Under the pieces are notes generated by a model that saw nothing but the letters and a program-made list of their open reading frames with translations, searched no databases and had not been told where the DNA came from. Positions 36,461-59,496 of a DNA stretch of 64,000 bases are shown piece by piece. The stretch's first letter is position 1, and the number at the start of each line of letters is the position of its first letter. The stretch is from an uncultured Acidobacteriota bacterium (GTDB lineage: Bacteria; Acidobacteriota; Terriglobia; UBA7540). The stretch spans positions 1,216,001 through 1,280,000 of the forward strand of contig CAWDSK010000005.1 in NCBI GenBank assembly GCA_963804995.1, given 5' to 3'. Both the position numbers and the translations under genes were made by a program.

Positions 36461-36913
36461 GTGCCGGTTGCTTGTTCCGCTGTTTTTCGCCAGCGCGTGT
36501 GTCACTTTCCTCCCTGTGGCGCGGTGTTTTATCTCTGCCAGCGCTGTGACCGCGGCCAGCGTTATTGCCGTCCCCATTGCCGGGAAAAGTCCCGCCGTCT
36601 CCAGCGCCGCGAGGCTAACCGCCGCTATCAACAAAGTCTCGGCCTGGAGGGGCGCCTCGATCATCGCCAGCGCCAACGCGAGTATCGCCAGCGCTTAAGA
36701 GCTCGCGTGACAGATCAATCTTCCCTTCGTGCTTCCCCCTGTGTGAACCTGACAGCGCCTCCGGCTCCGGAGCCGGCCGAAGCCCCTCCGGCGGCAGTTT
36801 TTTCCCCGGGGTCGGACGCCGAGCACGCGGCGAGCTGGGTCATCTGTCAGATTTGCGGACGCCGGGGGCGTTGGATCAATCCTTTTCCCGAGGTGAAGTA
36901 TGATTGCCGATGA
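36461..36913 (+). CDS. Cys-rich Zn-finger accessory protein of IS21
   Basis: C-x4-C...[14 protein letters not shown], Arg-rich helix, C-terminal CQICG; overlaps the istA start. Confidence 0.65.
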
Positions 36914-38402
36914 ACAAGTCGCTCAAATCCGTCACCTGTTTCACGCCGAGCATTGGAAGATCGGCACGATTGCGGCGGAACTGCACCTGCATCCCGATAC
37001 CGTGCGCGCCGCGCTCGAAACCGATCGCTTCCGTAGCCATCCCCGGCTGCGCGATCGTCTCACCGATCCTTACCTCGACTTCCTGCGCCAGACCTTGCAG
37101 CAATATCCTCGCCTGCGCGCTACCCGCCTCCTGCAGATGATCCGCTCGCGCGGCTACCCCGGCAGCATCAACCAACTCCGCCGTGTTGTGGCCGAACTAC
37201 GCCCGCCCCAGGGTGAAGCTTTTCTTCGTCTGCGCACGTTCCCCGGCGAGCAAGCACAGGCCGATTGGGCCCACTTCGGGGAAGTGACCATCGGTCGCGC
37301 CCGCCGTCGTTTGTCCGGCTTCGTCCTCACCCTCTCCTACAGCCGCGCTTTGTGGCTGGAGTTCTTCCTCGACCAAACCCTGGAGAATTTTCTCCTCGGT
37401 CACGTCCATGCCTTCGCCGATTGGGGTGGGGCCGCCCGAACCGTTTTGACCGACAATCTGCGCAGCGTGGTCTTGGAACGCAGTGGAGAGGCCATCCATT
37501 TCCACCCCCGTTTTCTCGAACTTTCGGCCCACTACCATTTCGCCACTCGGCCCTGCCGTCCTGCCCGGGGCAATGAAAAAGGCCGCGTGGAGCGCGCCAT
37601 TCAATATGTCCGTCACAACTTTTTCGCCGCCCGTCCCTTCACCACCCTGGCCGATTTCAACCGTCAGGCTCTCGACTGGCGCAACCAGGTCGCTCATCAG
37701 CGCCCCTGGCCCGGTGACGACTTCCGCACTGTCGCTCAGGTTTTCGAGGAAGAGAAACCGCGCCTGCTGCCACTTCCTGCCCATCCTTTCTCCTGCGACT
37801 TGACCACCACCGTGCGCGCCGATAAAACCCTCTGGGTCCGCTTCGACCTCAACGACTATTCCGTGCCGCCCCAGGCCTTGGGCCGCACGCTGACCTTGGT
37901 GGCTTCCCCTACCCGCGTGCGCCTCCTCGATGGCGCCACTGAAATCGCTTCCCACCCCCGCTCCTATGACCGGCATGAACTCGTCGACGAACCCGCACAC
38001 CATCAGGCCTTGCGGGAACAAAAACGCAAGGCTTTGGGTTCCACCGCGGGAGGTCGGCTGGCCATCCTGGTCCCGGAAAGCCCGGCCTTTCTTCAAGCCG
38101 CCTTTGAGCGCGGTGAATCCACCGCTCGGCTGACCGTGCAACTTCTCCGCCTGCTCGATGACTATGGGCCTGCGGAACTGAGCGCCACCCTCCGGGAAGC
38201 TCTCGACCGTCACACCCCGCGCCTTTCCTCCGTGGCCTTTATCCTGGCGCGCCGCCATCGCCAACGCCGGCAACGCGCTCCCTTGCCCGTCAATCTCTCC
38301 CGCCGCCCCGATCTGGAAAACTTGACCGTCTCAAATCCTTCTCTGGAGGCTTACGATGAACTCACCCAGGACCCCGACGAAGAACCCGAGCCCGAATCAT
38401 GA
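36900..38402 (+). CDS. istA: IS21 transposase
   Basis: [30 protein letters not shown]. Confidence 0.95.
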
Positions 38403-40602: not shown

Positions 40603-40701
40603 ACCAGAAACGTTTCCTCTTGCGTATTTTGTTTGCAGATATTGCACTTTCGTGCGTTTTCTTCTTGCATATCAAAGAATATCTGGCATACTGTGGGCAC
40701 G

Positions 40702-42306
40702 ATGACGGCGCGCACCACCCTTCCGGATCTCAAGACGCTCAACTCCCAAGCCTTGAAAGCTCTCATCCGCGCCCAACACCGAAGGCTGGCCTCGCAGGAG
40801 GAAGAACTCCACTCCAAAGACGAGCAACTGGCTTGGCGCCAAGCCGAGATCGAACGATTGAAGCTGCTGATTGCCAAGCTGCGGCGGATGCAGTTCGGGC
40901 GTCGGTCGGAAAAGCTGGAACGGCAGATCGAGCAGTTGGAGTTGCAGTTGGACGAGCTGGCCACCGCACAGGCAGAGAAAACGGTTGCTTCTCCGACGGC
41001 GGGGGCTGCCGCGTCGGCGGTGGATATGGGAAAGCCCGTGCGGCGGCTGCTGCCGGCCCATCTGCCGCGCCAGGTGCGGAAAATCCTGCCCCAGGAAGCC
41101 GCCTGTCCGGATTGCGGTGGTGAGTTGAAGGCCTTGGGCGAAGATATCTCCGAGATGCTGGAATACGTTCCGGCCCACTTCCAAGTGATCCGGCAGGTGC
41201 GGCCGAAGCTGGCCTGCTCCCGCTGTGACAAGATTGTGCAGGCCGATGCCCCGAGCCGTCCCATCGCCCGGGGCTTGGCAGGACCGGGGCTCTTGGCGCA
41301 TGTCGTCGTGTCGAAATACTGCGACCACCTCCCTCTGTACCGACAGGAGGAGATTTACGCGCGGGAAGGGGTGGAGCTGGAGCGCACTACGTTGGCGGAC
41401 TGGGTGGGCGGGGCGAGCCGGTTGCTGGCGCCGTTGGTGGAGACGCTGCGGCGTCACGTGATGAGTGCCACGAAACTGCACGCCGACGACACGCCGGTGC
41501 CCGTACTGGAACCCGGCCTGGGAAAAACCAAAACCGGGCGGCTGTGGACGTACGTTCGTGATGACCGGCCGGCCGGAGACCTCACCCCGCCGGCGGTGTG
41601 GTTCGCGTACTCACCCGATCGAAAGGGGGAACATCCCCAAGGTCACTTGCGCCCCTTCGCGGGAACGCTGCAGGCGGATGCCTATGCCGGGTTCGACCCC
41701 CTCTATGAAACGGGACGCATTCGCGAGGCCGCGTGTTGGGCGCATGTCCGAAGAAAGTTCTACGATCTTCAGGTCGCTCATAAGTCGCCGGTTGCCCAAG
41801 AAGCTCTCGAACGGATCGCCGCTCTGTACGCGACTGAGAGAGAGATCCGCGGGCGTCCGCCCAATGAGCGGCGCGAGGTCCGGCAAGCCCGGGCGCGGCC
41901 CCTGCTGGAATCGCTCCACGAGTGGCTCGAAAACTGTCTAACCAAGCTGTCGCAGAAATCCGATACGACGGCAGCGGTGAAGTATGCGCTGGGCCGCTGG
42001 GAGGCGCTGACGCGTTACGCAGAGGATGGTTCCCTGGAGATCGACAACAACGCCGCCGAACGGGCGCTGCGTGCTGTCGCCTTGGGACGCAAGAACTATC
42101 TCTTTGCAGGCTCCGATGCGGGTGGTGAGCGCGCCGCTACCCTCTACAGTCTCATCGGCACCGCGAAACTAAACAGCCTGGATCCGGAGAGCTACCTGCG
42201 CGACGTGCTCTCCCGCATCGCCGACCATCCCATCAACCACATCGAGGAGTTGCTGCCCTGGAACTTCGCCAAACAAGGCGCCGACTTCCGCTCCGACCCC
42301 CAGTAA
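40702..42306 (+). CDS. tnpC: IS66 TnpC DDE transposase
   Basis: FGRRSEK, CPDCG, KYCDHLPLYRQ, HADDTP, DNNAAER. Confidence 0.95.
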   Translation: MTARTTLPDLKTLNSQALKALIRAQHRRLASQEEELHSKDEQLAWRQAEIERLKLLIAKLRRMQFGRRSEKLERQIEQLELQLDELATAQAEKTVASPTAGAAASAVDMGKPVRRLLPAHLPRQVRKILPQEAACPDCGGELKALGEDISEMLEYVPAHFQVIRQVRPKLACSRCDKIVQADAPSRPIARGLAGPGLLAHVVVSKYCDHLPLYRQEEIYAREGVELERTTLADWVGGASRLLAPLVETLRRHVMSATKLHADDTPVPVLEPGLGKTKTGRLWTYVRDDRPAGDLTPPAVWFAYSPDRKGEHPQGHLRPFAGTLQADAYAGFDPLYETGRIREAACWAHVRRKFYDLQVAHKSPVAQEALERIAALYATEREIRGRPPNERREVRQARARPLLESLHEWLENCLTKLSQKSDTTAAVKYALGRWEALTRYAEDGSLEIDNNAAERALRAVALGRKNYLFAGSDAGGERAATLYSLIGTAKLNSLDPESYLRDVLSRIADHPINHIEELLPWNFAKQGADFRSDPQ

Positions 42307-43279: not shown

Positions 43280-44884
43280 TTGCCAGGTAACCACAACGAA
43301 ATTGAGAAGCGTCTTTGGAGTGCGGCCGACGAGCTGCGCGCCAATTCCAAGTTGAAATCTTCTGAGTACTCCGTCCCGGTTCTGGGGCTAATCTTTCTTC
43401 GCTACGCCGACCACAAGTTCACTCAAGCTGAAAAAGAGCTGGCAAACAAGGGTTCGCAGCGGCGCTTTGTGAACAAGACGGATTATCAAGCGCGGGGCGT
43501 GATGTACCTTCCGCCCACGGCGCGTTTTTCCCATCTCTTGAAATTGCCTGAGGGTGCGGATACCGGCAAAGCCATCAACGAGGCGATGAAGGCTATCGAG
43601 GCCGACAACGAAGACCTGAAGGACGTGCTTCCCAAGACTTACAACCGCCTGGAAAACTCCACGCTGGTCGAGCTGCTGAAGACCATGAGTTCGATTCCCA
43701 TGGATATTGAGGGCGACGCCTTTGGGAAGATTTACGAATACTTCCTGGGAAAATTTGCGTTGAGTGAAGGCCAAAAGGGCGGCGAATTTTTTACCCCAAC
43801 ATCGCTGGTGAAGCTCATCGTCGAGGTCATTGAGCCTTACCACGGGCGCATTTTTGATCCCGCCTGCGGCTCGGGCGGCATGTTTGTGCAGAGCGCGCGG
43901 TTTGTAGAGAACCACAAGAAGAACCCCGGCGCGGAAATCATGGCCTACGGGCAGGAGCGCGTTGCCGAAACCATTCGGCTCTGCAAGATGAACCTGGCGG
44001 TGCACGGCCTCTCCGGAGACATTCGCCAGGCCAACACATACTATGAGGACATCCACCAAAGCGTGGGCAAGTTTGACTTCGTGATGGCCAATCCGCCCTT
44101 CAACGTGGACAAGGTGGATAAGGAAAAGATCAAGGACGATCCCCGCTTTCCCCTCGGCATGCCCAAGGCGGATAACGCCAATTATCTTTGGATTGAAATC
44201 TTTTTCAGCGCCTTGAGCGCCAAGGGGCGGGCGGGTTTCGTGATGGCGAATTCCGCCGCCGACGCGCGGGGCACGGAATTGGAGATTCGCAGGAAGCTGA
44301 TCGAATCGGGCGTGGTGGATGTGATGATTTCCATCGGCTCCAATTTCTTTTACACCGTCACGCTGCCCTGTACGTTGTGGTTTTTGGATCGGGGTAAAGC
44401 TGCGCCAGCCCCGGGCGCGAAGAACAAAGAGGGCAGGGCGACCTGTCCCGGCCCAGCCGGGAGCCCAGCCCCTACGAAAGATACGGTGCTGTTTATCGAC
44501 GCCCGGCAGACATTTACGCAGATTGATCGTGCCCACCGCGAATTTACGGAAGAGCAAATCCAGTTCCTCGCCAACATTGTGAGGCTGTACCGCGAGGAGC
44601 CGCTGGCGGCGTTTATTGATGCGGAGACCAAAAAGCATTTCCCCAAGGGCAAGTACAAGGATGTGTCCGGCCTGTGCAAGGAGGCGACAGTTAAGGAAAT
44701 TGAGGCGCAGGGTTGGAGCCTGAATCCCGGTCGATACGTGGGCGTGACCGAGCGCGCGGCGGATGATTTTGATTTCAAGGAACGATTGGAAGAATTGAAC
44801 GAGGAACTCGAAACCTTGAACGCCGAAGCGCGCGAACTGGAAGAACGCATCGCCGAAAACGTGGCGCAACTATTGGATGAGTAG
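43280..44884 (+). CDS. hsdM: Type I R-M methyltransferase subunit
   Basis: [33 protein letters not shown] start with RBS GAGGTG. Confidence 0.95.
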
Positions 44885-44891
44885 GCCCTCC

Positions 44892-45043
44892 TTGGAGTGC
44901 GGTAGCAGCAGCTACCGCCTTTCGTTGTTACGCGGCGCGATCTTGCCGTATGAATCGAAGGTGGAAGCCCTCGCTATTTCGGGCGCATACTTCGCGGTTC
45001 TTAGCGCGTTCGGAAGGCGGTAGCTGCTGCTACCGCACTCCAA
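44892..45043. repeat. REPIN-like element, 30-bp perfect inverted arms
   Basis: TTGGAGTGCGGTAGCAGCAGCTACCGCCTT (44892-44921) and its reverse complement (45014-45043). Confidence 0.9.
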
Positions 45044-45080
45044 AGGGGGGCGAGCCGTCCCGCCTAATAGACACGTTGAA

Positions 45081-46307: not shown

Positions 46308-46378
46308 GGGTAGGGCTTGCCTTACCCCTGGCGGGCCACTGGCCCGCTGAACTGTAGCGCGGGTGTCCCCACCCGCGC

Positions 46379-48141
46379 CTGGCCTTTGGCCTTTTGCAGT
46401 TCAAGCATTGGCGTAGCAGAGGGCGGAGGCGAGGGGGAAGGTACAATTCTGGGGCTTCGTTGTAGAGGGTTGGGGAGGCGCGAAGCCGGAGAAATGATCG
46501 AGACCCAGTCCCCGGCCCCAGACCTCGGCGCGCAGTTGATGGATGGCGTGTTGGGTGGAGATGCGGGCAGTGGGGGCAGCGTGGATCCACTTGGGGCGCG
46601 GCAGCAGGCCGTGGCGGGTACGGGCGAAGGCGCGATGGGTAGCGAGGAGCAAGAGGGCATAGGCGGCCACGGTGAAGGCGGGGGCAGACTCGACCGAATG
46701 GGGGGAGCGGACCTGGGCTTGGCCCACTCCCAGCAGAGTTTTTTCATCGCGGAAATTAACTTCAATGTCCCAGCGTTGGAAGTAAGTTGTGATGAGGAGT
46801 TGGGGGTTGAGGTTTTCGTCGGTGCAGAGGAGGAAGGCGGGTTGGCGATAGAGCAGCTTGGAACCTTGGCGCAGACGATAGGCGAGCGGCGCGATGACGA
46901 CAAGTTGCAGGAATTGGTGGGCGCCGGCGGCACGCCACAGGAGGCCGGTGCGGCGCTTGAAGCGGAGTTGATGGGGAATGCCGTGATGGGTAAAGGTCAA
47001 GGTCTGCCAGGGAGCATCGTCGGTGCGGACCTGCTCGGGAGTGGGAGCGGGAGGCCCGTAGCAGAGACGGCGACCGCGCGCCTTTTGGGTTTGGGGATCG
47101 GGCCGGAACAGCAACTGAGCATCTTTGCGGAGCCGGCCGATGGCGGTGGTATGGGGAGGAAGGCGTTTGAGGACGGTGCGGTTGGTGTATCCGCCATCGA
47201 AGGCGACGAGGAGAAGGCGCGAAGCGGAGGCGGGATCGGAGTCAAGGGCCGCACGCAGATCGTGGATCTGTTCGCTGGCGCGTTGACCGAGGCGGGCAGC
47301 GCGCGCTTGGGTGCGGTACTGCTGCTGCTCGGCGGCGGGGGCCTGCCGGGAAGGCTTGCGGGGCGTGGGGGCATGGCGGAAAGCAATGGGGAGCAAGCGG
47401 CAGGAGCCGTCGGGAGTGGGGAGCGCGAGGGAGGTTTGAAGAAAACGCTGGGCGCGCACGAAGTTGGTTTGAAAGCGCGGGCCCAGCGGGTCGCGGCGCC
47501 AAGCCACCCCGGGAGTGCGCCGACCGGAACGACGCAACAGCGAGTCATCGAGGAGGGCGCAGACGGGAGCGCCGGGTGCGAGTTCGCTCACCACCGCGCG
47601 GCGCACCACGGAGAAGAGCGCCTCAACCCGCAGACGGTGCTGGGAGAAGAGCCGGTAACTGGAGGTCCAGTCACGGAACTGCAGGCCGCAAGTGGTGAGC
47701 AGACCGGTCACGGTATGGCGTCCCAGACAAAGCAAGGTGCTCAGCGCGAGGGCTTGGGCGTGCGCGGCAACGCGGCGCTGGCGGAAGCCCGGGAAACATT
47801 GGCTCCAGAGTTGTTCGAGTTCGGCGAGGACGCCGGTAGAGTTTTTTTTAGCACGGAAGGCGGCGGCGAGGCTCGTCGCAGGGCCAGCAGACCTTTGTTT
47901 TCGACGAACCATTCGACCGATTCGCCGCGCGCAAACTCCATGGCTTGGGCGAGGGCGGAAGGAAAGTTGATGTACCACTGCTCGCTCGCCTGGCGTTTGA
48001 TAAGCTGTACTTTGGTAGGGAACCCCATGAGAAAAGCCTCCTTGAGGAATATCTAGTCATATAACTAGATATCAGAAGACTGGCTTTTCTGCAAGTAAAT
48101 ACTTTCCGACAGCCTTTATCTAGTTAAAGGCCAAAGTCCAG
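46379..48141 (-). mobile_element. IS4-superfamily (IS701/IS4-like) element, copy 1, 1763 bp, 22-bp target duplication
   Basis: IRs CTGGCCTTTGGCCTTT / CTGGACTTTGGCCTTT; flanked by GCGCGGGTGTCCCCACCCGCGC at 46357-46378 and 48142-48163. Confidence 0.92.
46401..48028 (-). CDS. AbrB-like domain + DDE transposase, fused by predicted -1 frameshift at the A8 run (47842-47849)
   Basis: orfA KVQLI...QWYINFPSALAQAMEFARGESVEW; orfB LDDS, FDGGY, YFQRWDIEVNFRDEK (Y-2-R-3-E-6-K). Confidence 0.82.
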
Positions 48142-48176
48142 GCGCGGGTGTCCCCACCCGCGCACGAATTCAACAA

Positions 48177-48200
48177 CGCGGGTGGGGACACCCGCGCTAC
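48177..48200 (-). repeat. GTAG-type REP, inverted partner of the REP targeted by IS copy 1
   Basis: CGCGGGTGGGGACACCCGCGCTAC; further copies near 42926 (degenerate), 54337 and 54363. Confidence 0.85.
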
Positions 48201-48258
48201 AGCGGGCGGGACGCCCGCGTTACGACGATGGCGATGGCCCAGAGAGGGATAACGAAAA

Positions 48259-48507
48259 ATGAACGTACGTCTACATCCCCACGCGCAGGAACGAATCGCC
48301 GAGCGGGGCGCCACGGAAGAGGAAGTTGTGGCCACGGTGCTTGAAGGGGAGACCTTTCCCGCTAAATTCGGACGGACAGGTTTCCGCCGCAATTTTGCTT
48401 TTGACGGCGAGTGGCTGGGCCGCCGGTACGCCACCAAGCAGGTGGAAGCCTATGCCGTTGAAGAAGATGGCTGGCTTGTGATCACGGTTATTGTAAAATA
48501 CTTCTGA
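48259..48507 (+). CDS. DUF4258-like putative RelE-fold toxin
   Basis: HPHAQERIAERG.TEEEV...VITV; upstream of a DUF2283 gene. Confidence 0.7.
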   Translation: MNVRLHPHAQERIAERGATEEEVVATVLEGETFPAKFGRTGFRRNFAFDGEWLGRRYATKQVEAYAVEEDGWLVITVIVKYF

Positions 48508-48525
48508 AGGATGGTGAGTTCCGCC

Positions 48526-48786
48526 ATGAAATTAACCTACGACCCTCGCTATAACATCGCGTATCTCCGTTTTCAGGAAAAGACCGCTCAGGTGGAAACG
48601 CTGCATCTCAGCGACGCCCTGAATGTCGATATGGCCCCGGATGGGACCGTCTATGGGATTGAAATGCTGAACGCGGATCAGCAACTCCGGGCGGAGGACA
48701 ACGGAGACTTCGTCATCGTGAACGAGGCGCTGGCGCAAAGGCAGGTCGTCCGCCTTGCCAAATCGGAGGGGAAAGGTACGCCTTGA
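48526..48786 (+). CDS. DUF2283 putative antitoxin
   Basis: MKLTYDP..NIAYLRF...VD...DG..YGIE.LNA. Confidence 0.8.
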   Translation: MKLTYDPRYNIAYLRFQEKTAQVETLHLSDALNVDMAPDGTVYGIEMLNADQQLRAEDNGDFVIVNEALAQRQVVRLAKSEGKGTP

Positions 48787-48989
48787 GGAAGCGACGTAAG
48801 CCGGCGAAGCGCTTCGACTGTATCGAATTCAAGCGCCAGGCACAGGCGGAGATTTACCAGGAAATCAAAGGGCTCACGCCCGAAGAGGAAATCGAATATT
48901 TCCGCCGGCAGGTCGCTGCCGGTCCTTTCGGCAAGTTGTGGAAGTCCCTCGAAGATCGCTCGCGGGCCGCGGCTTGGCACCCTTCATGA
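48783..48989 (+). CDS. Small hypothetical protein
   Basis: FDCIEFKRQAQ.EIY.EIKGLT.EEEIEYF; coupled to the upstream stop. Confidence 0.55.
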   Translation: MRKRRKPAKRFDCIEFKRQAQAEIYQEIKGLTPEEEIEYFRRQVAAGPFGKLWKSLEDRSRAAAWHPS

Positions 48990-49003
48990 GATTTCGCGCA
49001 GCG

Positions 49004-49123
49004 TTTGGACTGCGGCCGCGAAGCTGCCGCTTTCCAATTTGGCGCCGAAGTTGACCCCAGCCACAACCGCTATGTTATGGCTGACGATGAGGCAAAGCGG
49101 CAGCTTCGCGGCCGCAGTCCAAA
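49004..49123. repeat. REPIN-like element, 30-bp perfect inverted arms
   Basis: TTTGGACTGCGGCCGCGAAGCTGCCGCTTT (49004-49033) and its reverse complement (49094-49123). Confidence 0.9.
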
Positions 49124-49144
49124 GCGGCTGCGCCGCACACGCCA

Positions 49145-52100
49145 ATGAAAACCACGGACTACTCCGAAGATGCGCTCGTTGAGCAGCCCGCCATTGAGCT
49201 GTTTGGCAAACTGCGGTGGGAGACGGCGAACTGTTTCCATGAGTTCGATCACGGCCCGAGTCCCCTGGGCCGGGACTCAAAAGGCGAGGTCGTCCTGGTT
49301 CCCCGCCTGCGGGCCGTGCTTAAGCTCCTCAATCCCAAGCTTCCAGAAGAAGCAATCAATCTCGCCATTGAAGAGCTCACCCGTGGCCGCAGCACTATGA
49401 GCGCGGCAGCAGCCAACCGTGAAATCTACCGCCTGTTGAAAGACGGCGTAAAGGTAACGTACAAAACCGACGACGGCGAAGACTCGAGCGACACGGTAAG
49501 GGTGATCGACTGGAATTCTCCCCGCAATAACGACTTCTTTCTCGCTTCCCAATTCTGGATTATGGGGGAGATGTACGAGCGCCGAGCGGACCTGGTGGGA
49601 TTCGTCAACGGATTGCCGCTGGTCTTTGTCGAACTCAAAGCCGCTCACAAAGCCGTGGAGTCAGCCTATCAGAACAACCTGCGCGATTACCGCGACGCCA
49701 TTCCGCACGTCTTCTGGTACAACGCCGTCACCATTCTCTCCAATGGAAGCGAAAGCCGCATCGGCAGCATGACGGCGGAATGGGAACACTTTGCCGAATG
49801 GAAACGAATCAACGAGGAAGGCGAACAGGGAATCGTGTCGCTCGAGACCATGATCCGGGGAACGTGCGACAAGGTAAAGCTGCTCGACCTGGTGGAAAAT
49901 TTTACGGTGTTCGAGGAAAAGGGTGGCGGACTGGCGAAAAAAATCGCCAAGAACCACCAGTACCTGGGCGTAAACAATGCCATCCACGCCCTTCTCGCCA
50001 TCCATAACAACCAAGGTAAGTTAGGGGTCTTCTGGCACACGCAGGGTAGCGGCAAAAGCGTTTCCATGGTGTTCTTTGCCCAAAAGGTGCTGCGCAAGTT
50101 GCCGGGCAACTGGACGTTTGTGATTGTCACTGACCGGAAAGACTTGGACGAGCAGATTTACAAGAATTTCGCCAATGTCGGCGCGGTAACCGAAAAGGAG
50201 GCCCATGCGGAGAGCGGCAAAGGGCTGCAACGCTTGCTACAGGAGGACCACCGCTACGTCTTTACCCTTATTCAGAAGTTTGGGACGGAAAAAGGGCAGA
50301 AGTACCCGAAGCTCTCCGACCGTCCCGACATTATCGTAATGACGGATGAGGCGCATCGTAGCCAGTACGACACGTTTGCCTTGAACATGCGGAATGCTCT
50401 GCCTAATGCTTCGTTTATCGGCTTTACGGGAACGCCGCTGATGAAGGTGGGGGAAGAAAAGACCCGTGAAGTGTTCGGCGGTTACGTCAGCATTTACAAC
50501 TATCAGCAGTCGACGGAGGATGGGTCCACCGTTCCCCTCTTCTACGAAAACCGTATTCCCGAACTTCAGCTTACCAATCAGGATTTGAATGACGACATCT
50601 ATGAAGTGGTGGAAGGCGCGGAGCTCGACGAGGACCAGGAAAAGAAGCTGGAACGGGAATTTGCCCGCCAATACCACCTGATCACGCGCGACGACCGCCT
50701 GGAGAAAATTGCCGCCGACCTCGTGGAGCACTTCATGGGCCGGGGCGAGATGGGCAAGGCCATGGTGGTTTGCATCGATAAGGCGACCGCCGTCAAGATG
50801 TACGATAAGGTGCAGAAATATTGGAAGGCGCACCTCGCGAAGCTTCGCGGCGAATTGGCGCAGGCAAAGCAAAGCGAACGGCCCCTGCTGGAAAATAAAA
50901 TCCGCTACATGCAGGAAACGGATATGGCCGTGGTGGTGTCGCAGTCGCAAAACGAAATCAAAGAGATGAAGAAGAAGGGAGTGAACATTGAACCACACCG
51001 CAAGCGCATGGTGAAGGAGGACCTGGACACGGAATTCAAGAAGGACGATAGCATCTTCCGGATCGTTTTCGTCTGCGCCATGTGGATGACGGGGTTTGAC
51101 GTGCCCTCCTGCTCCACCATCTATCTCGACAAACCGATGCGCAATCACACCCTGATGCAAACCATCGCGCGGGCAAACCGGGTGTTCCGCGATAAGGTGA
51201 ACGGCTTGATTGTGGATTATGTGGGAGTCTTTCGCGACTTGCAGAAGGCGCTGGCCATCTATGCTCCTAGCACCGCCGGCGCTGGCGGTCCGGTGAAGGG
51301 CAAATCAGAATTGGTGGCCTTGCTTAAACAGGCCATCGAGGCGGCCACCGCATTCTGCGAGGGACTGGGAATCAGCGTGAACAGCATTATTGGGGCCCAG
51401 GGCTTTTCACGGGTGAAGCTCCTGGACGACGCGGTGGCGGCCATTCTGGTGAATGATGAGACAAAACGGAAATACCACTTGCTCACCGAGGATGTGGTGA
51501 GGATGACAAAGGCGGTTAAACCCGATCCCGCGATTAATGAGTTTCTGCCCCTCAGCGTCCTATTTGCCGTAATCGATGAGACGATTCGCTCCAAGAGCAA
51601 ATCGGCGGACATCTCCACCGTCATGGCAGGCATTGAACAGGTCCTGGACAAGTCGATAGCCGCTGAGGGCTATGTGATTGAGGCGGAAACGCCCCTGGAC
51701 TTGAGCAAGTTGGATGTGGACAAGCTAAAGGCCAGGTTTGCCAAGGGCCGCAAGCAGATTGAGGCGGAAAAGCTTCGGGGAGCGCTCGAACAGCAAACTT
51801 CAGAAGCTGATTAAATTCAATCGCACGCGGATAGATTATCTGGACAAGTTCCAGAAGATGATCGATGAGTACAACGCTGGAAGTTTGAATATCGAAGAGT
51901 TCTTTAAGCAGCTCGTCGCCTTCACCAAGGATTTGAACGAAGAGGAAAAGCGTGGGATCGCCGAAAATCTGACCGAGGAAGAGTTGGCCATCTTCGACCT
52001 GCTCACCCGGCCGGAAATGAAGTTAAGCAAGAAAGAAGAACAACAGGTCAAAAAGGTGGTTAAGGACCTCATTCAAAAACTCAAGACGGAAAGGTTTGTT

Positions 52101-52283
52101 TTAGACTGGCGAAAACGGCAGCAATCCAGGGCGGCGGTTCGCGTTTGCATTGGAGAGGTCCTCGACCACCTGCCTCGGGTGTACACGCCTGAGGTTTACC
52201 AACAAAAATGTGAGCTGACCTACCAACACGTTTACGATTCGTACTTTGGGTTAGGTAGTAGCGTATACGAGAACCGGGTATAG
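49145..52283 (+). CDS. hsdR: Type I R-M restriction subunit; +1 frameshift near 51790
   Basis: RADLVGFVNGLPLVFVELK, WHTQGSGKS, TDEAHRSQ, FTGTP, MWMTGFD; C-terminal domain continues in the +1 frame (KLIKFNRTR...YQHVYDSY). Confidence 0.92.
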
Positions 52284-52527
52284 CAGCAGGCATGGCGCGA
52301 ACTTGTTCCGTAGGCCCGCGGCCTTCAAGGTTAAATCCTCCCGGTCTCTTCGGCTGGCAAGCGCACGCGGTCAAAGGTTGCGTGTAGCTACGGTGTCGTT
52401 GCGGCGACCTCTTGCGCATGGCCTTTTCTCCCGCCCGAGGCCCCACGGTAGCTAACAGCTAAAAGCTAACAGCTCTCAGCTTTCAGCTCTCAGTTTTCTG
52501 TTGTAGCGCGGGTGTCCTCACCCGCGT

Positions 52528-54290
52528 CTGGCCTTTGGCCTTTTGCAGTTCAAGCATTGGCGTAGCAGAGGGCGGAGGCGAGGGGGAAGGTACAATTCTG
52601 GGGCTTCGTTGTAGAGGGTTGGGGAGGCGCGAAGCCGGAGAAATGATCGAGACCCAGTCCCCGGCCCCAGACCTCGGCGCGCAGTTGATGGATGGCGTGT
52701 TGGGTGGAGATGCGGGCAGTGGGGGCAGCGTGGATCCACTTGGGGCGCGGCAGCAGGCCGTGGCGGGTACGGGCGAAGGCGCGATGGGTAGCGAGGAGCA
52801 AGAGGGCATAGGCGGCCACGGTGAAGGCGGGGGCAGACTCGACCGAATGGGGGGAGCGGACCTGGGCTTGGCCCACTCCCAGCAGAGTTTTTTCATCGCG
52901 GAAATTAACTTCAATGTCCCAGCGTTGGAAGTAAGTTGTGATGAGGAGTTGGGGGTCGAGGTTTTCGTCGGTGCAGAGGAGGAAGGCGGGTTGGCGATAG
53001 AGCAGCTTGGAACCTTGGCGCAGACGATAGGCGAGCGGCGCGATGACGACAAGTTGCAGGAATTGGTGGGCGCCGGCGGCACGCCACAGGAGGCCGGTGC
53101 GGCGCTTGAAGCGGAGTTGATGGGGAATGCCGTGATGGGTAAAGGTCAAGGTCTGCCAGGGAGCATCGTCGGTGCGGACCTGCTCGGGAGTGGGAGCGGG
53201 AGGCCCGTAGCAGAGACGGCGACCGCGCGCCTTTTGGGTTTGGGGATCGGGCCGGAACAGCAACTGAGCATCTTTGCGGAGCCGGCCGATGGCGGTGGTA
53301 TGGGGAGGAAGGCGTTTGAGGACGGTGCGGTTGGTGTATCCGCCATCGAAGGCGACGAGGAGAAGGCGCGAAGCGGAGGCGGGATCGGAGTCAAGGGCCG
53401 CACGCAGATCGTGGATCTGTTCGCTGGCGCGTTGACCGAGGCGGGCAGCGCGCGCTTGGGTGCGGTACTGCTGCTGCTCGGCGGCGGGGGCCTGCCGGGA
53501 AGGCTTGCGGGGCGTGGGGGCATGGCGGAAAGCAATGGGGAGCAAGCGGCAGGAGCCGTCGGGAGTGGGGAGCGCGAGGGAGGTTTGAAGAAAACGCTGG
53601 GCGCGCACGAAGTTGGTTTGAAAGCGCGGGCCCAGCGGGTCGCGGCGCCAAGCCACCCCGGGAGTGCGCCGACCGGAACGACGCAACAGCGAGTCATCGA
53701 GGAGGGCGCAGACGGGAGCGCCGGGTGCGAGTTCGCTCACCACCGCGCGGCGCACCACGGAGAAGAGCGCCTCAACCCGCAGACGGTGCTGGGAGAAGAG
53801 CCGGTAACTGGAGGTCCAGTCACGGAACTGCAGGCCGCAAGTGGTGAGCAGACCGGTCACGGTATGGCGTCCCAGACAAAGCAAGGTGCTCAGCGCGAGG
53901 GCTTGGGCGTGCGCGGCAACGCGGCGCTGGCGGAAGCCCGGGAAACATTGGCTCCAGAGTTGTTCGAGTTCGGCGAGGACGCCGGTAGAGTTTTTTTTAG
54001 CACGGAAGGCGGCGGCGAGGCTCGTCGCAGGGCCAGCAGACCTTTGTTTTCGACGAACCATTCGACCGATTCGCCGCGCGCAAACTCCATGGCTTGGGCG
54101 AGGGCGGAAGGAAAGTTGATGTACCACTGCTCGCTCGCCTGGCGTTTGATAAGCTGTACTTTGGTAGGGAACCCCATGAGAAAAGCCTCCTTGAGGAATA
54201 TCTAGTCATATAACTAGATATCAGAAGACTGGCTTTTCTGCAAGTAAATACTTTCCGACAGCCTTTATCTAGTTAAAGGCCAAAGTCCAG
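52528..54290 (-). mobile_element. IS4-superfamily element, copy 2, 1763 bp, 22-bp target duplication
   Basis: Near-identical to copy 1 (one substitution seen, 46808/52957); flanked by GCGCGGGTGTCCTCACCCGCGT at 52506-52527 and 54291-54312. Confidence 0.92.
52550..54177 (-). CDS. AbrB-like + DDE transposase, copy 2 (-1 frameshift at 53991-53998)
   Basis: Same as copy 1. Confidence 0.82.
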
Positions 54291-54422
54291 GCGCGGGTGT
54301 CCTCACCCGCGTCTTCGAGGTAACGAGACACGTAAAGCGCGGGTGGGGACACCCGTATTAAACGCGGGTGGGGACACCCGCGCTACAAGCCCACGGCTCA
54401 CCGCCGACAGATGGGACCGGGT

Positions 54423-54665
54423 TTAGGGATTAGGGGCTAGGATTCAGGATAACTCCTGGCTTCTGGCTCCTGGCTCCCAGCTCCTAGCTTCTAACTCCTG
54501 GCTTCTGGCTCCTGGCTTCTATCCCCCAGCCCCGTATCCCGAGTCGCGAATCCCGATTCCAGATTCCAGATTTGAGATTGCCAAGTCCCGAATCCCGTAT
54601 CCCGTGTCCCGTATCCCCAGTCCCGTATCCCGTGTCCCGAACCCCGTATTCCGGCTCCCGAGCCC
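54423..54665. repeat. Degenerate heptamer tandem repeats
   Basis: (CTCCTGG/CTTCTGG)n then (ATCCCGT/GTCCCGT)n; similar short tracts at 52450-52497 and near 61310. Confidence 0.85.
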
Positions 54666-57583: not shown

Positions 57584-59496
57584 GTGCGCCGGGATAAACC
57601 GGCAGAAAGCAGAGAATGAAAATTTCTCACGAGGAAGGAGCAGCGATCCACTCGGCCCCGAGTTTTGCGCTGGGCGTCGTGAGGCGCACGGTGAAGCGTA
57701 AACAGGGGAATAGGTGGGCTGGGTATTGAGCTTCGAAAATGTCCAATCAGGACGCCGACGTTTTCAGACTAAACGGAAGGCAACATGAGGCCGGGACGCC
57801 AACGCGAGTTCCGGCACAGTCCTGCGTAGTCGTAGACCCCAGACACGCCTAGACACTTTCTGCACGAGAACCGGGAGACCTCGGAGGCGCCGGCCGCCGT
57901 AGATCGTGGCCGGACGGCGGGAAAAGGCGATGGCCGTACAGCCCGCCTGCACGCTTTCGAGGAGTCGGACAGCGGAACAGTACCGATGAATCATTTGAAC
58001 AAAGACGGGAAGCCGTTGGCGGAGAATGAGGAGGGAAGGCCGCTGATCAAGGAGAACACCCGTTGGCCTAACACGCACCCGACACAGAGCGGGGCACGCG
58101 TGTCCCAGGGACTCGCGGGTGTGCGGAAAGCCGCGAAGGAACACAGGGAGATGAAGTTCACGGCCTTGCTCCACCACTTAACGGTCGATCTGCTGCGGGA
58201 AAGCTTTTACGCCTTGAAGCGAAAAGCTGCACCGGGAGTAGACGGCATGACGTGGCAGGAGTATGAAAGCGGGCTGGAAGGTCGACTCGTCGATCTGCAC
58301 AGCCGGGTCCACCGTGGAGCATTCCGAGCGAAGCCCTCGCGAAGGGCGTATATCCCGAAAGGCGACGGGCGGCAACGTCCGTTGGGGGTTGCGGCACTGG
58401 AGGACAAGATCGTCCAACAGGCCGTGGTCACCATCCTCAATGCGATTTACGAGGAAGACTTTCTGGGCTTCTCGTATGGCTTTCGACCGGGATGCAGCCA
58501 GCATCAAGCGCTGGACGCGCTCTCGTACGCGCTCACGGTGAAGCACGTGAACTACGTTCTTGACGCGGACATTCGTGGATTTTTCGATTCGATATCCCAC
58601 GAATGGATGCTCAAGTTCGTGCAGCATCGCGTCGCCGACCCCCGGATTCTCCGGCTCATCCAGAAATGGCTGAAAGCCGGGGTGAGGGAGGAAGGCGAAT
58701 GGTCGGAGACGGAGATGGGTACGCCACAAGGGGCGGTGGTCTCGCCCCTGCTGGCGAATATCTATCTGCACTACGTCTTTGACCTGTGGGTGCAGGCGTG
58801 GCGCAAGAAGCACGCCCGGGGAGACGTGGTCGTGGTGCGGTATGCCGACGATACGGTCCTTGGATTCCAATCGCAGACGGAAGCCGACCGCTTTCTGGAG
58901 GATTTCCGGGAGCGGGTGGGGAAGTTTGGATTGGAACTGCATCCTGACAAAACGCGCCGGATCGAGTTCGGGCCGTTTGCCGAACTTTACCGGAAACGGA
59001 GAGGAGAAGGTAAGCCGGAGACGTTCGACTTTCTGGGCTTCACGCATATCAGCGGGAAGAACCGGAGGGGGCAATTTACCGTGAAGCGGAAGACGATCAG
59101 CAAGCGCCTGCGGGGGAAGTTGCAGGAACTCAAGCAACAACTCCGGCAGCGTCGGCACGATCCCATCGCGGATACGGGTAAATGGCTCCGGTCGGTCGTG
59201 CAAGGCTACTTCAACTATCACGCGGTACCGGGAAACCTCGACCGCCTGCGAATCTTTCGGGAACGGTTGACCCGACTGTGGCGAACACAACTGCGTCAAC
59301 GCAGTCAACGCCACCGCCTCAACTGGGACCGACTGGGGAAGCTTGCGGCCTGCTGGTTGCCTGCTCCGCACGTTGTGCATCCTTGGCCATCCCAACGGTT
59401 CGCCGCCACACATCCGAGATAAGAGCCGTATGCGCTAACCAGCGCACGTACGGATCCGTGCGGGGGGTACCGGGTAACCGGTATCCCTACCGCAAC
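57584..59496 (+). mobile_element. Complete group II intron
   Basis: 5' GTGCG at 57584; EBS1 CAGACT (57765-57770) in a CGTTT/AAACG stem-loop pairs with 5' exon GGTCTG; DV GAGCCGTATGCG...CACGTACGGATC; ends CCCTACCGCAAC. Confidence 0.9.
57986..59422 (+). CDS. ltrA: Group II intron reverse transcriptase/maturase (no endonuclease domain)
   Basis: APGVDG, RPLG, SYGFRPG, DADIRGFFD, GTPQG, RYADD, FDFLGF, GYFNYH; start uncertain. Confidence 0.93.
   Translation: MNHLNKDGKPLAENEEGRPLIKENTRWPNTHPTQSGARVSQGLAGVRKAAKEHREMKFTALLHHLTVDLLRESFYALKRKAAPGVDGMTWQEYESGLEGRLVDLHSRVHRGAFRAKPSRRAYIPKGDGRQRPLGVAALEDKIVQQAVVTILNAIYEEDFLGFSYGFRPGCSQHQALDALSYALTVKHVNYVLDADIRGFFDSISHEWMLKFVQHRVADPRILRLIQKWLKAGVREEGEWSETEMGTPQGAVVSPLLANIYLHYVFDLWVQAWRKKHARGDVVVVRYADDTVLGFQSQTEADRFLEDFRERVGKFGLELHPDKTRRIEFGPFAELYRKRRGEGKPETFDFLGFTHISGKNRRGQFTVKRKTISKRLRGKLQELKQQLRQRRHDPIADTGKWLRSVVQGYFNYHAVPGNLDRLRIFRERLTRLWRTQLRQRSQRHRLNWDRLGKLAACWLPAPHVVHPWPSQRFAATHPR

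Follow-up and report, generated by a model that had tools for sequence, protein, structure and literature searches.

An insertion sequence of an uncultured Acidobacteriota bacterium and its related elements duplicate whole target hairpins

The analysed window is a stretch of 64,000 nucleotides from the genome of an uncultured Acidobacteriota bacterium. It contains two copies of an insertion sequence (IS) that differ at a single base (Table 1). Both are flanked by exact 22-bp direct repeats, identical within each copy and different at two positions between the copies. All repeats begin at the last G of GTAG and fold into one hairpin, with a 4-nt loop and a stem of either 9 bp or 8 bp plus a G-T pair. 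These coordinates bear out the preliminary description of the locus, which had reported two 1763-bp copies between exact repeats equal to a REP hairpin. A composite transposon with hsdR between the copies is ruled out by the separate duplication of each copy.

Table 1. Positions of the IS copies, their open reading frames and their target repeats in the window
Feature	Position	Strand	Basis or remark
GTAG of the REP entered by copy 1; the duplication begins with its last G	46354..46357	+	sequence
Left target duplication, copy 1: entire REP hairpin, 22 bp	46357..46378	.	computed
IS copy 1, 1763 bp, one of 10 full-length genome copies	46379..48141	-	computed
Right terminal inverted repeat, copy 1, 16 bp	46379..46394	-	computed
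ORF B, body of the DDE transposase, no ATG of its own; Tn5-like fold	46401..47849	-	computed
ORF A, 95 aa; N-terminal ~62 aa AbrB/MazE-like	47741..48028	-	weak Pfam, Atlas cluster
A8 slippery tract where ORF A overlaps ORF B (-1 frame)	47842..47849	-	sequence
Conserved palindrome 5' of ORF A, candidate operator	48049..48072	.	similar motif in 57/60 metagenome loci examined
Left terminal inverted repeat, copy 1, 16 bp	48126..48141	-	15/16 match with the right one
Right target duplication, copy 1, 22 bp	48142..48163	.	computed
Partner inverted REP of the doublet struck by copy 1	48177..48200	-	computed
GTAG (52503-52506) with the left repeat of copy 2, a variant hairpin of 22 bp (52506-52527)	52503..52527	+	computed
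IS copy 2, 1763 bp; own duplication, independent insertion	52528..54290	-	computed
Right target duplication, copy 2, 22 bp	54291..54312	.	computed
Two more inverted REPs, one of them degenerate, in the cluster struck by copy 2	54337..54386	-	computed

ORF B has the catalytic residues D102/D103, D219 and E364 and the YREK signature Y357-R360-E364-K371 (numbering of window:46404-47852). R360, E364 and K371 are invariant in 81 sequences, and Y357 is nearly so. Tn5 is the sole clear fold match of the transposase (TM ~0.49). The signature and the fold suggest cut-and-paste release via a hairpin-ended intermediate; no end-to-end joint was seen in the contigs of four sequencing runs, which cannot show its absence. 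The A8 tract is retained in all ten genome copies, and the -1 frame, the A-run and the missing ATG recur in 80 of 84 homologous loci. Thus ORF A and ORF B are probably fused by a -1 frameshift into a predicted product of ~542 aa. No strong structure was found after the slippery tract, which makes transcriptional slippage and ribosomal frameshifting equally possible. The match of ORF A to Pfam PF04014 is weak and below cut-off (E=0.027); the ORF matches an Atlas cluster at 0.93, and PF04014 occurs in 17% of the cluster members.

The term IS4-like, used previously, holds at the level of the superfamily. The best family model is NF049999 (IS701_3), with 182.7 bits against a cut-off of 170. The best IS4 family model (43 bits, cut-off 250), the main IS701 model (52 bits, cut-off 150) and the IS1634 model (27 bits, cut-off 100) are not reached. 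The IS30 model was absent from the matches of the transposase at E<=1 and from those of the 81 members, and the IS1182 model was found neither for the transposase nor in the 81 members. A second element of the same genome, a 40%-identical relative, scores 132 bits with IS701_3, under the cut-off. As for the traits of the IS4 family in the strict sense, the DDE triad and Y(2)R(3)E(6)K are present, the single-ORF transposase is contradicted by the ORF A and ORF B layout, and the duplication of 7-13 bp fits two plain 7-bp sites, with the 17-29 bp at hairpins falling outside. The element also departs from the IS701 traits of a 4-5-bp duplication, an incomplete YREK and a size of 1400-1550 bp.

The rhizobial relatives (L087-L090; 25% identity, 311 bits) have 5-bp repeats in three of four loci. 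The IS701_3 rhizobial group is the nearest outgroup of the hairpin clade in a tree built from a quick search, which gives the hairpin group an open base. The element is an IS4-superfamily DDE element whose clade is adjacent to the IS701_3 (5-bp) group. At E<=1e-10 the clade is represented by 4582 protein clusters or more, a number that may include non-hairpin relatives; the best match in a plasmid collection has 25% identity. No publication on this clade was found in a literature search with ISfinder and most subscription journals outside its range; clade members may be listed among the IS701 clusters of PMC2266710, additional file 8.

Repeats of 18-27 bp flank eight of the ten genome copies, and every one is a different or variant hairpin. 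The 40%-identical relative likewise duplicates hairpins, and on one REP the two transposases produced an identical 22-bp repeat. Among 117 loci, with element ends set by an anchored end finder, we found 55 repeats of 17-29 bp (17-25, 27 and 29 bp, without helical periodicity). All 55 are centred on a hairpin, and their ends mostly lie 1 nt beyond the stem. A hairpin adjoins 224 of 241 element ends, as against 248 of 40000 random genome positions (0.6%). Ends are undefined for L063, L065, L043 and the contig-edge loci. In metagenome and viral loci matching repeats were seen in only 8 of 61, yet 99 of 111 ends adjoin a hairpin; the shortage of matching repeats is probably due to collapsed short-read assembly. 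The one near-identical holder in the sequencing runs has a flank already present in the source genome and was excluded as an independent case.

The 55 repeats represent 45 distinct sequences, each identical within its own locus. Repeat length follows hairpin length (r=0.83 for 44 of the 45, one imperfect hairpin excluded), the check proposed in the preliminary description. Position 2 of the repeat forms a Watson-Crick pair in 43 of 45, and position 1 is unpaired or G-T in 30 of 45. Within a single REP family, an 8-bp stem goes with a 21-bp repeat and a stem that extends further with one of 27 bp. The register is loose: offsets 0, -1, +2, -2 and -4 all occur, and one REP yields both 21-bp and 25-bp repeats. 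In this genome, the other multi-copy elements whose ends can be read have short, near-fixed repeats of approximately 4, 7, 8, 9 and 11 bp. Hairpin duplication is therefore not a host effect, and the specificity is that of the enzyme.

The origin of the repeats is seen in empty alleles. Thirteen empty copies of an ISKra4-like element contain the 21-bp target hairpin once. One of the ten genome copies lies at a site without a hairpin and has a 7-bp repeat, and this site is uninterrupted in 5/5 sister loci; the 7-bp value is based on two plain sites only. The flanking genes of the 27-bp site are adjacent in eight of nine loci of sister species; as an empty allele the site is uninformative, since the REP itself is missing there. 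Finally, the regenerated hairpin was used again as a target at seven ends. The earlier proposals that the repeat is target-derived, that targeting is structure-guided and that the insertion regenerates its own target all stand, while one of the refuting cases named with them, a short repeat at a non-palindromic site, does occur at a low rate.

We consider the following account probable. The transposase would choose GC-clamped hairpins of any sequence, with stems of 6-13 bp and loops of 3-4 nt, and the target palindrome would be held as a cruciform, which either supercoiling would extrude or the enzyme would stabilise. Since stems of 6-8 bp are short to extrude unaided, the enzyme may need to induce the cruciform. 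Each transposon 3'-OH would be linked to one strand of the target, at the 5' foot of the hairpin formed by that strand, usually 1 nt beyond the stem, so that the two strand transfers lie diagonally across the cruciform. The entire hairpin would then form a single-stranded gap on either side, copied by host gap filling, and therefore the repeat would measure the hairpin plus about 2 nt. Every insertion would turn one target into two, and at plain sites an enzyme of this type would produce the 7-bp stagger.

One alternative has the same joints made on single-stranded hairpins, at a replication fork or in a transcription bubble, with the strands attacked singly and duplex DNA forming no four-way junction. 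Short stems fold readily in single-stranded DNA, and the register at the stem foot is predicted equally well. However, the centring of all long repeats needs mirror cuts on both strands in one event, both target orientations are in use, and enzymes of the Tn5 type, whose fold the transposase shares, act on duplex targets. We regard this reading as unlikely, if worth a hearing. Fold-back repair synthesis, copying the arms after a short loop stagger as in ISRm22 or ISPsy8, is largely refuted and has very little left in its favour. Though a 7-bp stagger is known in the clade and insertion into REPs at the loop axis is on record in passages of PMC1525189, it predicts perfect complements, whereas non-complementary outer bases are the same on both sides in 30 of the 45 distinct repeats and L156 retains internal mismatches; other ISs of the host do not display it. 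Still more remote is an element that carries its own REP and moves by homologous or site-specific crossover, or that acquired REPs at its ends later. The two repeats of the window do belong to one REP family; against it stand the number of distinct repeat sequences, the empty alleles with a single hairpin, and a DDE enzyme with terminal inverted repeats.

A further alternative is targeting specific to REPs, with GTAG or a REP-bound protein (e.g. RAYT) guiding the transposase and fixing the register. Two GTAG-REP families, ~7% of the non-coding hairpins in the genome, received 7 of 16 hairpin insertions there (nominal p 5e-5, the sites not being independent). Y1 genes adjoin GTAG hairpins in this genome, and the final G of GT[AG]G is the first base in nine of the 45 distinct repeats; one of the nine is L139, whose stem extends 4 bp further. 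On the other hand, 32 of the 45 have no such motif nearby, one target is the coding hairpin inside the ISKra4-like element, and repeated and rare hairpins are used about proportionally (11/14 vs 836/1221, p 0.31). GTAG-REPs are entered in either orientation. REPs dominate among the targets largely because they make up most of the non-coding hairpins. Thus REP-specific guidance is quite improbable, and the fixed 22-bp duplication in a register defined by REP and GTAG, as suggested before, is ruled out by the range of lengths and by the repeats without the motif. The excess in the two families, together with zero insertions in the two commonest arm types, means that some preference beyond shape remains.

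The rule is exact and can be tested: length follows the hairpin, the cut lies at the stem foot, and the 7-bp fallback and the 5-bp sister group are built-in controls. Maps of insertions would also reveal the places at which short palindromes extrude in vivo, and insertion into any designed 20-bp hairpin, which is preserved, might become a useful tool for integration. A wider reading, somewhat short of an even chance, is that of a large undescribed IS family with a Tn5-fold, junction-reading integrase, which would bind or induce a four-way junction and make a resolvase-like diagonal cut 1 nt 5' of each stem. The family would have given up a 5-bp sequence target in favour of shape recognition, keeping the 7-bp fallback, with swappable AbrB-like or HARE-HTH-like N-terminal partners, and would multiply its landing sites in a RAYT-REP landscape. 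Such an enzyme would amount to a portable integrase programmed by shape and, in vivo, to a natural reporter of cruciform formation.

Hairpin duplication itself is not unprecedented. IS1630 of Mycoplasma fermentans, an IS30 family element, is an earlier case, reportedly described by Calcutt, Lavrrar and Wise in 1999; it had not been cited in the preliminary description. Its transposase is of an unrelated family, whereas the clade considered here is Tn5-fold, IS701-adjacent and two-ORF. In spacer integration by Cas1-Cas2, the two borders of a palindromic 25-40-bp unit are attacked with a stagger, and the whole unit is doubled; that enzyme is unrelated, and it acts on a fixed repeat measured from the leader, not on any hairpin.

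The end signature of the IS701_3 group resembles that of the clade. IS701 elements, according to the passages on them in PMC2266710, have a single ORF, 1400-1550 bp, 4-bp repeats and mostly no Y of YREK, whereas clade members have 1.75-2.0 kb, an additional ORF, full YREK in most cases and 17-29-bp repeats. IS1549 and IS1634 are likewise IS4-related with long variable duplications (8-514 bp); the corresponding passages mention no hairpin rule and give no model, and state that long variable duplications by DDE transposases have had none so far (PMC2266710). The R of YREK is mostly absent in the IS1634 family and invariant (R360) here. ISRm22, ISPsy8 and IS1397 also reside in REPs, and the available account has ISRm22 (6 bp) and ISPsy8 (3 bp) cutting at the symmetry axis and breaking the REP (PMC1525189), whereas the clade cuts at the stem foot and doubles the hairpin. 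For IS1272/TnSha1 (IS1182 family), passages of PMC5678879 and PMC4923244 likewise describe hairpins chosen by structure, without sequence consensus and in both orientations; there the hairpin is deleted or replaced and not duplicated. The duplication geometry of the present clade was drawn by Wan et al. 2017 (Fig. 13, pathway b) as a hypothetical alternative. The clade thus provides a real case of a pathway only hypothesised for IS1272, so that duplicating, deleting and loop-cutting outcomes can be compared.

The two copies of the 1763-bp element in the window differ by a single base; their terminal inverted repeats, 16 bp long, match at 15/16 positions. On either side of each copy stands an exact 22-bp direct repeat whose first base is the last G of a GTAG motif. 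The repeat folds into a single hairpin and is the same within a copy and different between copies; the preliminary description of these features was accurate on re-examination. Both copies lie in REP clusters of a type I restriction operon, one 3' of hsdS and the other 3' of hsdR, and are separate insertion events. Both hsdR frames carry T1RH-like_C, the cause of the split being a frameshift or an assembly error. The small gene pair between hsdS and hsdR is presumably of the toxin-antitoxin type.

Features of the window, in window coordinates
Feature	Position	Remark
IS copy 1	46379-48141	1763 bp
IS copy 2	52528-54290	1763 bp
hsdR, first of two overlapping frames	49145-51814	889 aa
hsdR, second frame	51738-52283	181 aa
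Small two-gene pair	48259-48786	second gene with DUF2283
Further long REP-like inverted doublets of the restriction operon	44875-45060, 49004-49123	free of the element
Degenerate 7-bp tandem repeats	52450-52495, 54450-54661	on both sides of copy 2
rve_3/HTH element, two copies	18318 and 27696	
Mu-C-domain transposase	36900-38402	
IS66	40633-42306	
Group II intron reverse transcriptase	57986-59422	

Ten full copies of the element were found in the source genome. Eight have exact repeats (22, 22, 21, 18, 21, 19, 27 and 21 bp), every one a hairpin, and these hairpins stem from several unrelated sequence families. The flanks of the remaining two (C2:760070 and C1:277250) are swapped; paired crosswise, they yield one 21-bp REP hairpin and one hairpin-less 7-bp repeat. 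The swap is the trace of a rearrangement of the genome, either by intramolecular transposition or by recombination of two copies; it may also be a misassembly. The 7-bp site is real, since its flanks are contiguous around a single 7-bp copy in all five sister-genome loci fetched; the surrounding reading frame, judged from its translation, is presumably PIN-like. A second element of this genome (1830 bp, 40% identical, seven copies) has exact 18-22-bp hairpin repeats in six copies, the seventh being off by one base beside the end. At the same REP variant it produced a 22-bp repeat identical to that of window copy 2. The other multi-copy elements with readable ends have short repeats of about 4, 7, 8, 9 and 11 bp (23 repeat families were listed, with ends unreadable in many). 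Therefore the long hairpin repeat is a property of the transposase. Four Y1 transposase genes of the same genome (L220, L222, L223, L229) have GTAG hairpins alongside and are RAYT-like; at L229 four identical hairpins are spaced about 165 bp.

The copy at C3:276534 is inserted in a hairpin of a 14-copy element, which is ISKra4-like by model score (194 bits, under the cut-off of 205). The 13 other, uninterrupted copies carry this 21-bp hairpin once, with the same flanks. Thus the repeat arises upon insertion and is target-derived, as previously proposed. The hairpin falls within the coding region of the ISKra4-like element, so a REP, the target initially suggested, is not obligatory. A second family end lies straight behind the hairpin at 7 of 235 ends (8 matches, one false), showing that regenerated targets are used again.

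Homologues were taken from genomes (53 loci), metagenomes (the best 80 of 536), viral contigs (1) and relatives; the named records are chiefly from Acidobacteriota, and also from Bacteroidales and Chthonomonadaceae. At the protein level, 8000 clusters were scored, and at least 4582 of them reached E<=1e-10. The final set comprises 127 loci with paired ends; it excludes unpaired loci, duplicates (L091, L187, L203, and further copies from the source genome), false pairs (L092, L128, L140, L201, L211, L217), and the outgroup-like L204 and L058. Of the 117 loci whose flanks each measure 17 nt or more, 56 show exact repeats of at least 6 bp. By group, with short-flank loci included in the totals, they occur in 14/17 loci of the source genome, 25/34 genome loci, 9/15 relatives and 8/61 metagenome or viral loci. 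Fifty-five repeats, representing 45 distinct sequences, are 17-29 bp long (mode 21-22), L188 and L200 possibly being one site, and all 55 are hairpin-centred. The sole short one is the 7-bp repeat of L159, at a plain site. Non-palindromic sites with short repeats, named at the outset as evidence against hairpin targeting, thus exist at L159 and at the 7-bp site of the source genome, beside 55 hairpin-centred ones.

At face value, the low metagenome and viral rate counts against hairpin duplication. The flanks of metagenome loci are mostly two differing hairpins, which would be expected if short-read assembly collapsed a multi-copy element. Taken singly, 224 of 241 ends adjoin a hairpin; random positions do so in 248 of 40000 cases, and eight bases outward the signal drops to 5/240. 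One end of L210 (G206:C37) lies 1 nt off a perfect palindrome, at the foot of its stem of about 24 bp, a hint of repeats of >50 bp; its flanks are swapped with those of L206, hence there is no partner. Another insertion, of ~1.6 kb, interrupts the family member at L216 (G201:C5), whose exact 29-bp hairpin repeat is preserved nonetheless. Imperfect repeats at L004, L014 and C5:393729 of the source genome have one more REP unit or differ by 1-2 mismatches along one edge, which suggests slippage or repair during gap filling.

Repeat length, which the preliminary description proposed to compare with hairpin length, is correlated with it (r=0.83 for 44 sequences without L156, r=0.66 with it). Of the 45 distinct repeats, 43 have a position 2 that forms a Watson-Crick pair with its mirror; positions 3 and 4 do so in every repeat, and position 1 in only 15. 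G or C occupies position 2 at 83/90 ends. The overhang past the stem is 1 nt in 28 repeats and 0 in 8; it ranges from -4 to +2 in the rest, apart from one imperfect hairpin. A register set by GTAG is not supported: only 9/45 repeats have the last G of GT[AG]G as their first base, and 32/45 lack this motif in their vicinity. Both orientations of GTAG-REPs serve as targets. Repeated hairpins make up 836 of the 1221 hairpins that lie outside long reading frames in the source genome, and 11 of the 14 targets scored (p 0.31). Two REP families, however, account for 7/16 sites (nominal p 5e-5), so that some preference among hairpins remains to be accounted for.

DDE enzymes form the duplication between two staggered joints. 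Here the joints are mirror-symmetric, and their spacing varies over more than a full helical turn in step with the hairpin, which is most simply explained by looped-out DNA. The segment between the joints would be extruded as a cruciform, each strand would be attacked at the 5' foot of its own hairpin, and gap filling would then copy the hairpin, creating the duplication. Both the cruciform and the way in which the donor is released are inferred, and the substrate could also be single-strand hairpins at a fork. In 30/45 repeats the two sides have identical outer bases that are not complementary, which rules out fold-back repair. Of the cruciform cutting proposed initially, structure guidance is retained (55/55 hairpin-centred) and the GTAG register (9/45) is abandoned.

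The best model for the transposase is NCBIfam IS701_3 (182.7 bits, cut-off 170); the IS4 and IS1634 family models score far under cut-off. The catalytic triad and the full Y-R-E-K motif are conserved across 81 sequences. The only clear match of the AlphaFold model (pLDDT 86) is the Tn5 transposase (TM about 0.49, E 1e-9). ORF B, the transposase body, has no ATG and overlaps the upstream, weakly AbrB-like ORF A at an A8/A9 tract, in the -1 frame (80/84 loci), implying that a frameshift would yield a fusion protein of about 542 aa. In the second element and L041, the upstream ORF is HARE-HTH-like instead (score under cut-off), and the transposase ORF has its own ATG. The nearest outgroup, rhizobial IS701_3 elements (25% identity), has the end signature in common, 5-bp repeats in 3/4 loci, and no Y and K of the motif. 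The distant relative L204 (28% identity) shares this end signature and probably has a 4-bp repeat; its upstream ORF is of another kind. In a quick tree, with the base of the group unresolved, L159 is sister to L156, which duplicates hairpins; hence 7 bp is an alternative outcome and does not mark a separate lineage.

No account of this clade was found in the literature, most subscription journals and ISfinder being outside the search. In published descriptions, IS1272 targets hairpins and removes them (PMC5678879; PMC4923244), whereas the clade duplicates them; duplication of a complete hairpin appears in Wan et al. as their hypothetical pathway b (PMC5678879). For ISRm22 and ISPsy8, the cut in the REP lies at its axis and the repeats measure 6 and 3 bp, respectively (PMC1525189); IS701 has 4-bp repeats, and IS1549/IS1634 have repeats of 8-514 bp, presented there without a model (PMC2266710). 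The clade is related to IS701_3, departs from IS701 and from IS4 in features that define each of them, and works like IS1630. The hairpin duplication is real, family-wide and sharply ruled, and is not a new category of behaviour.
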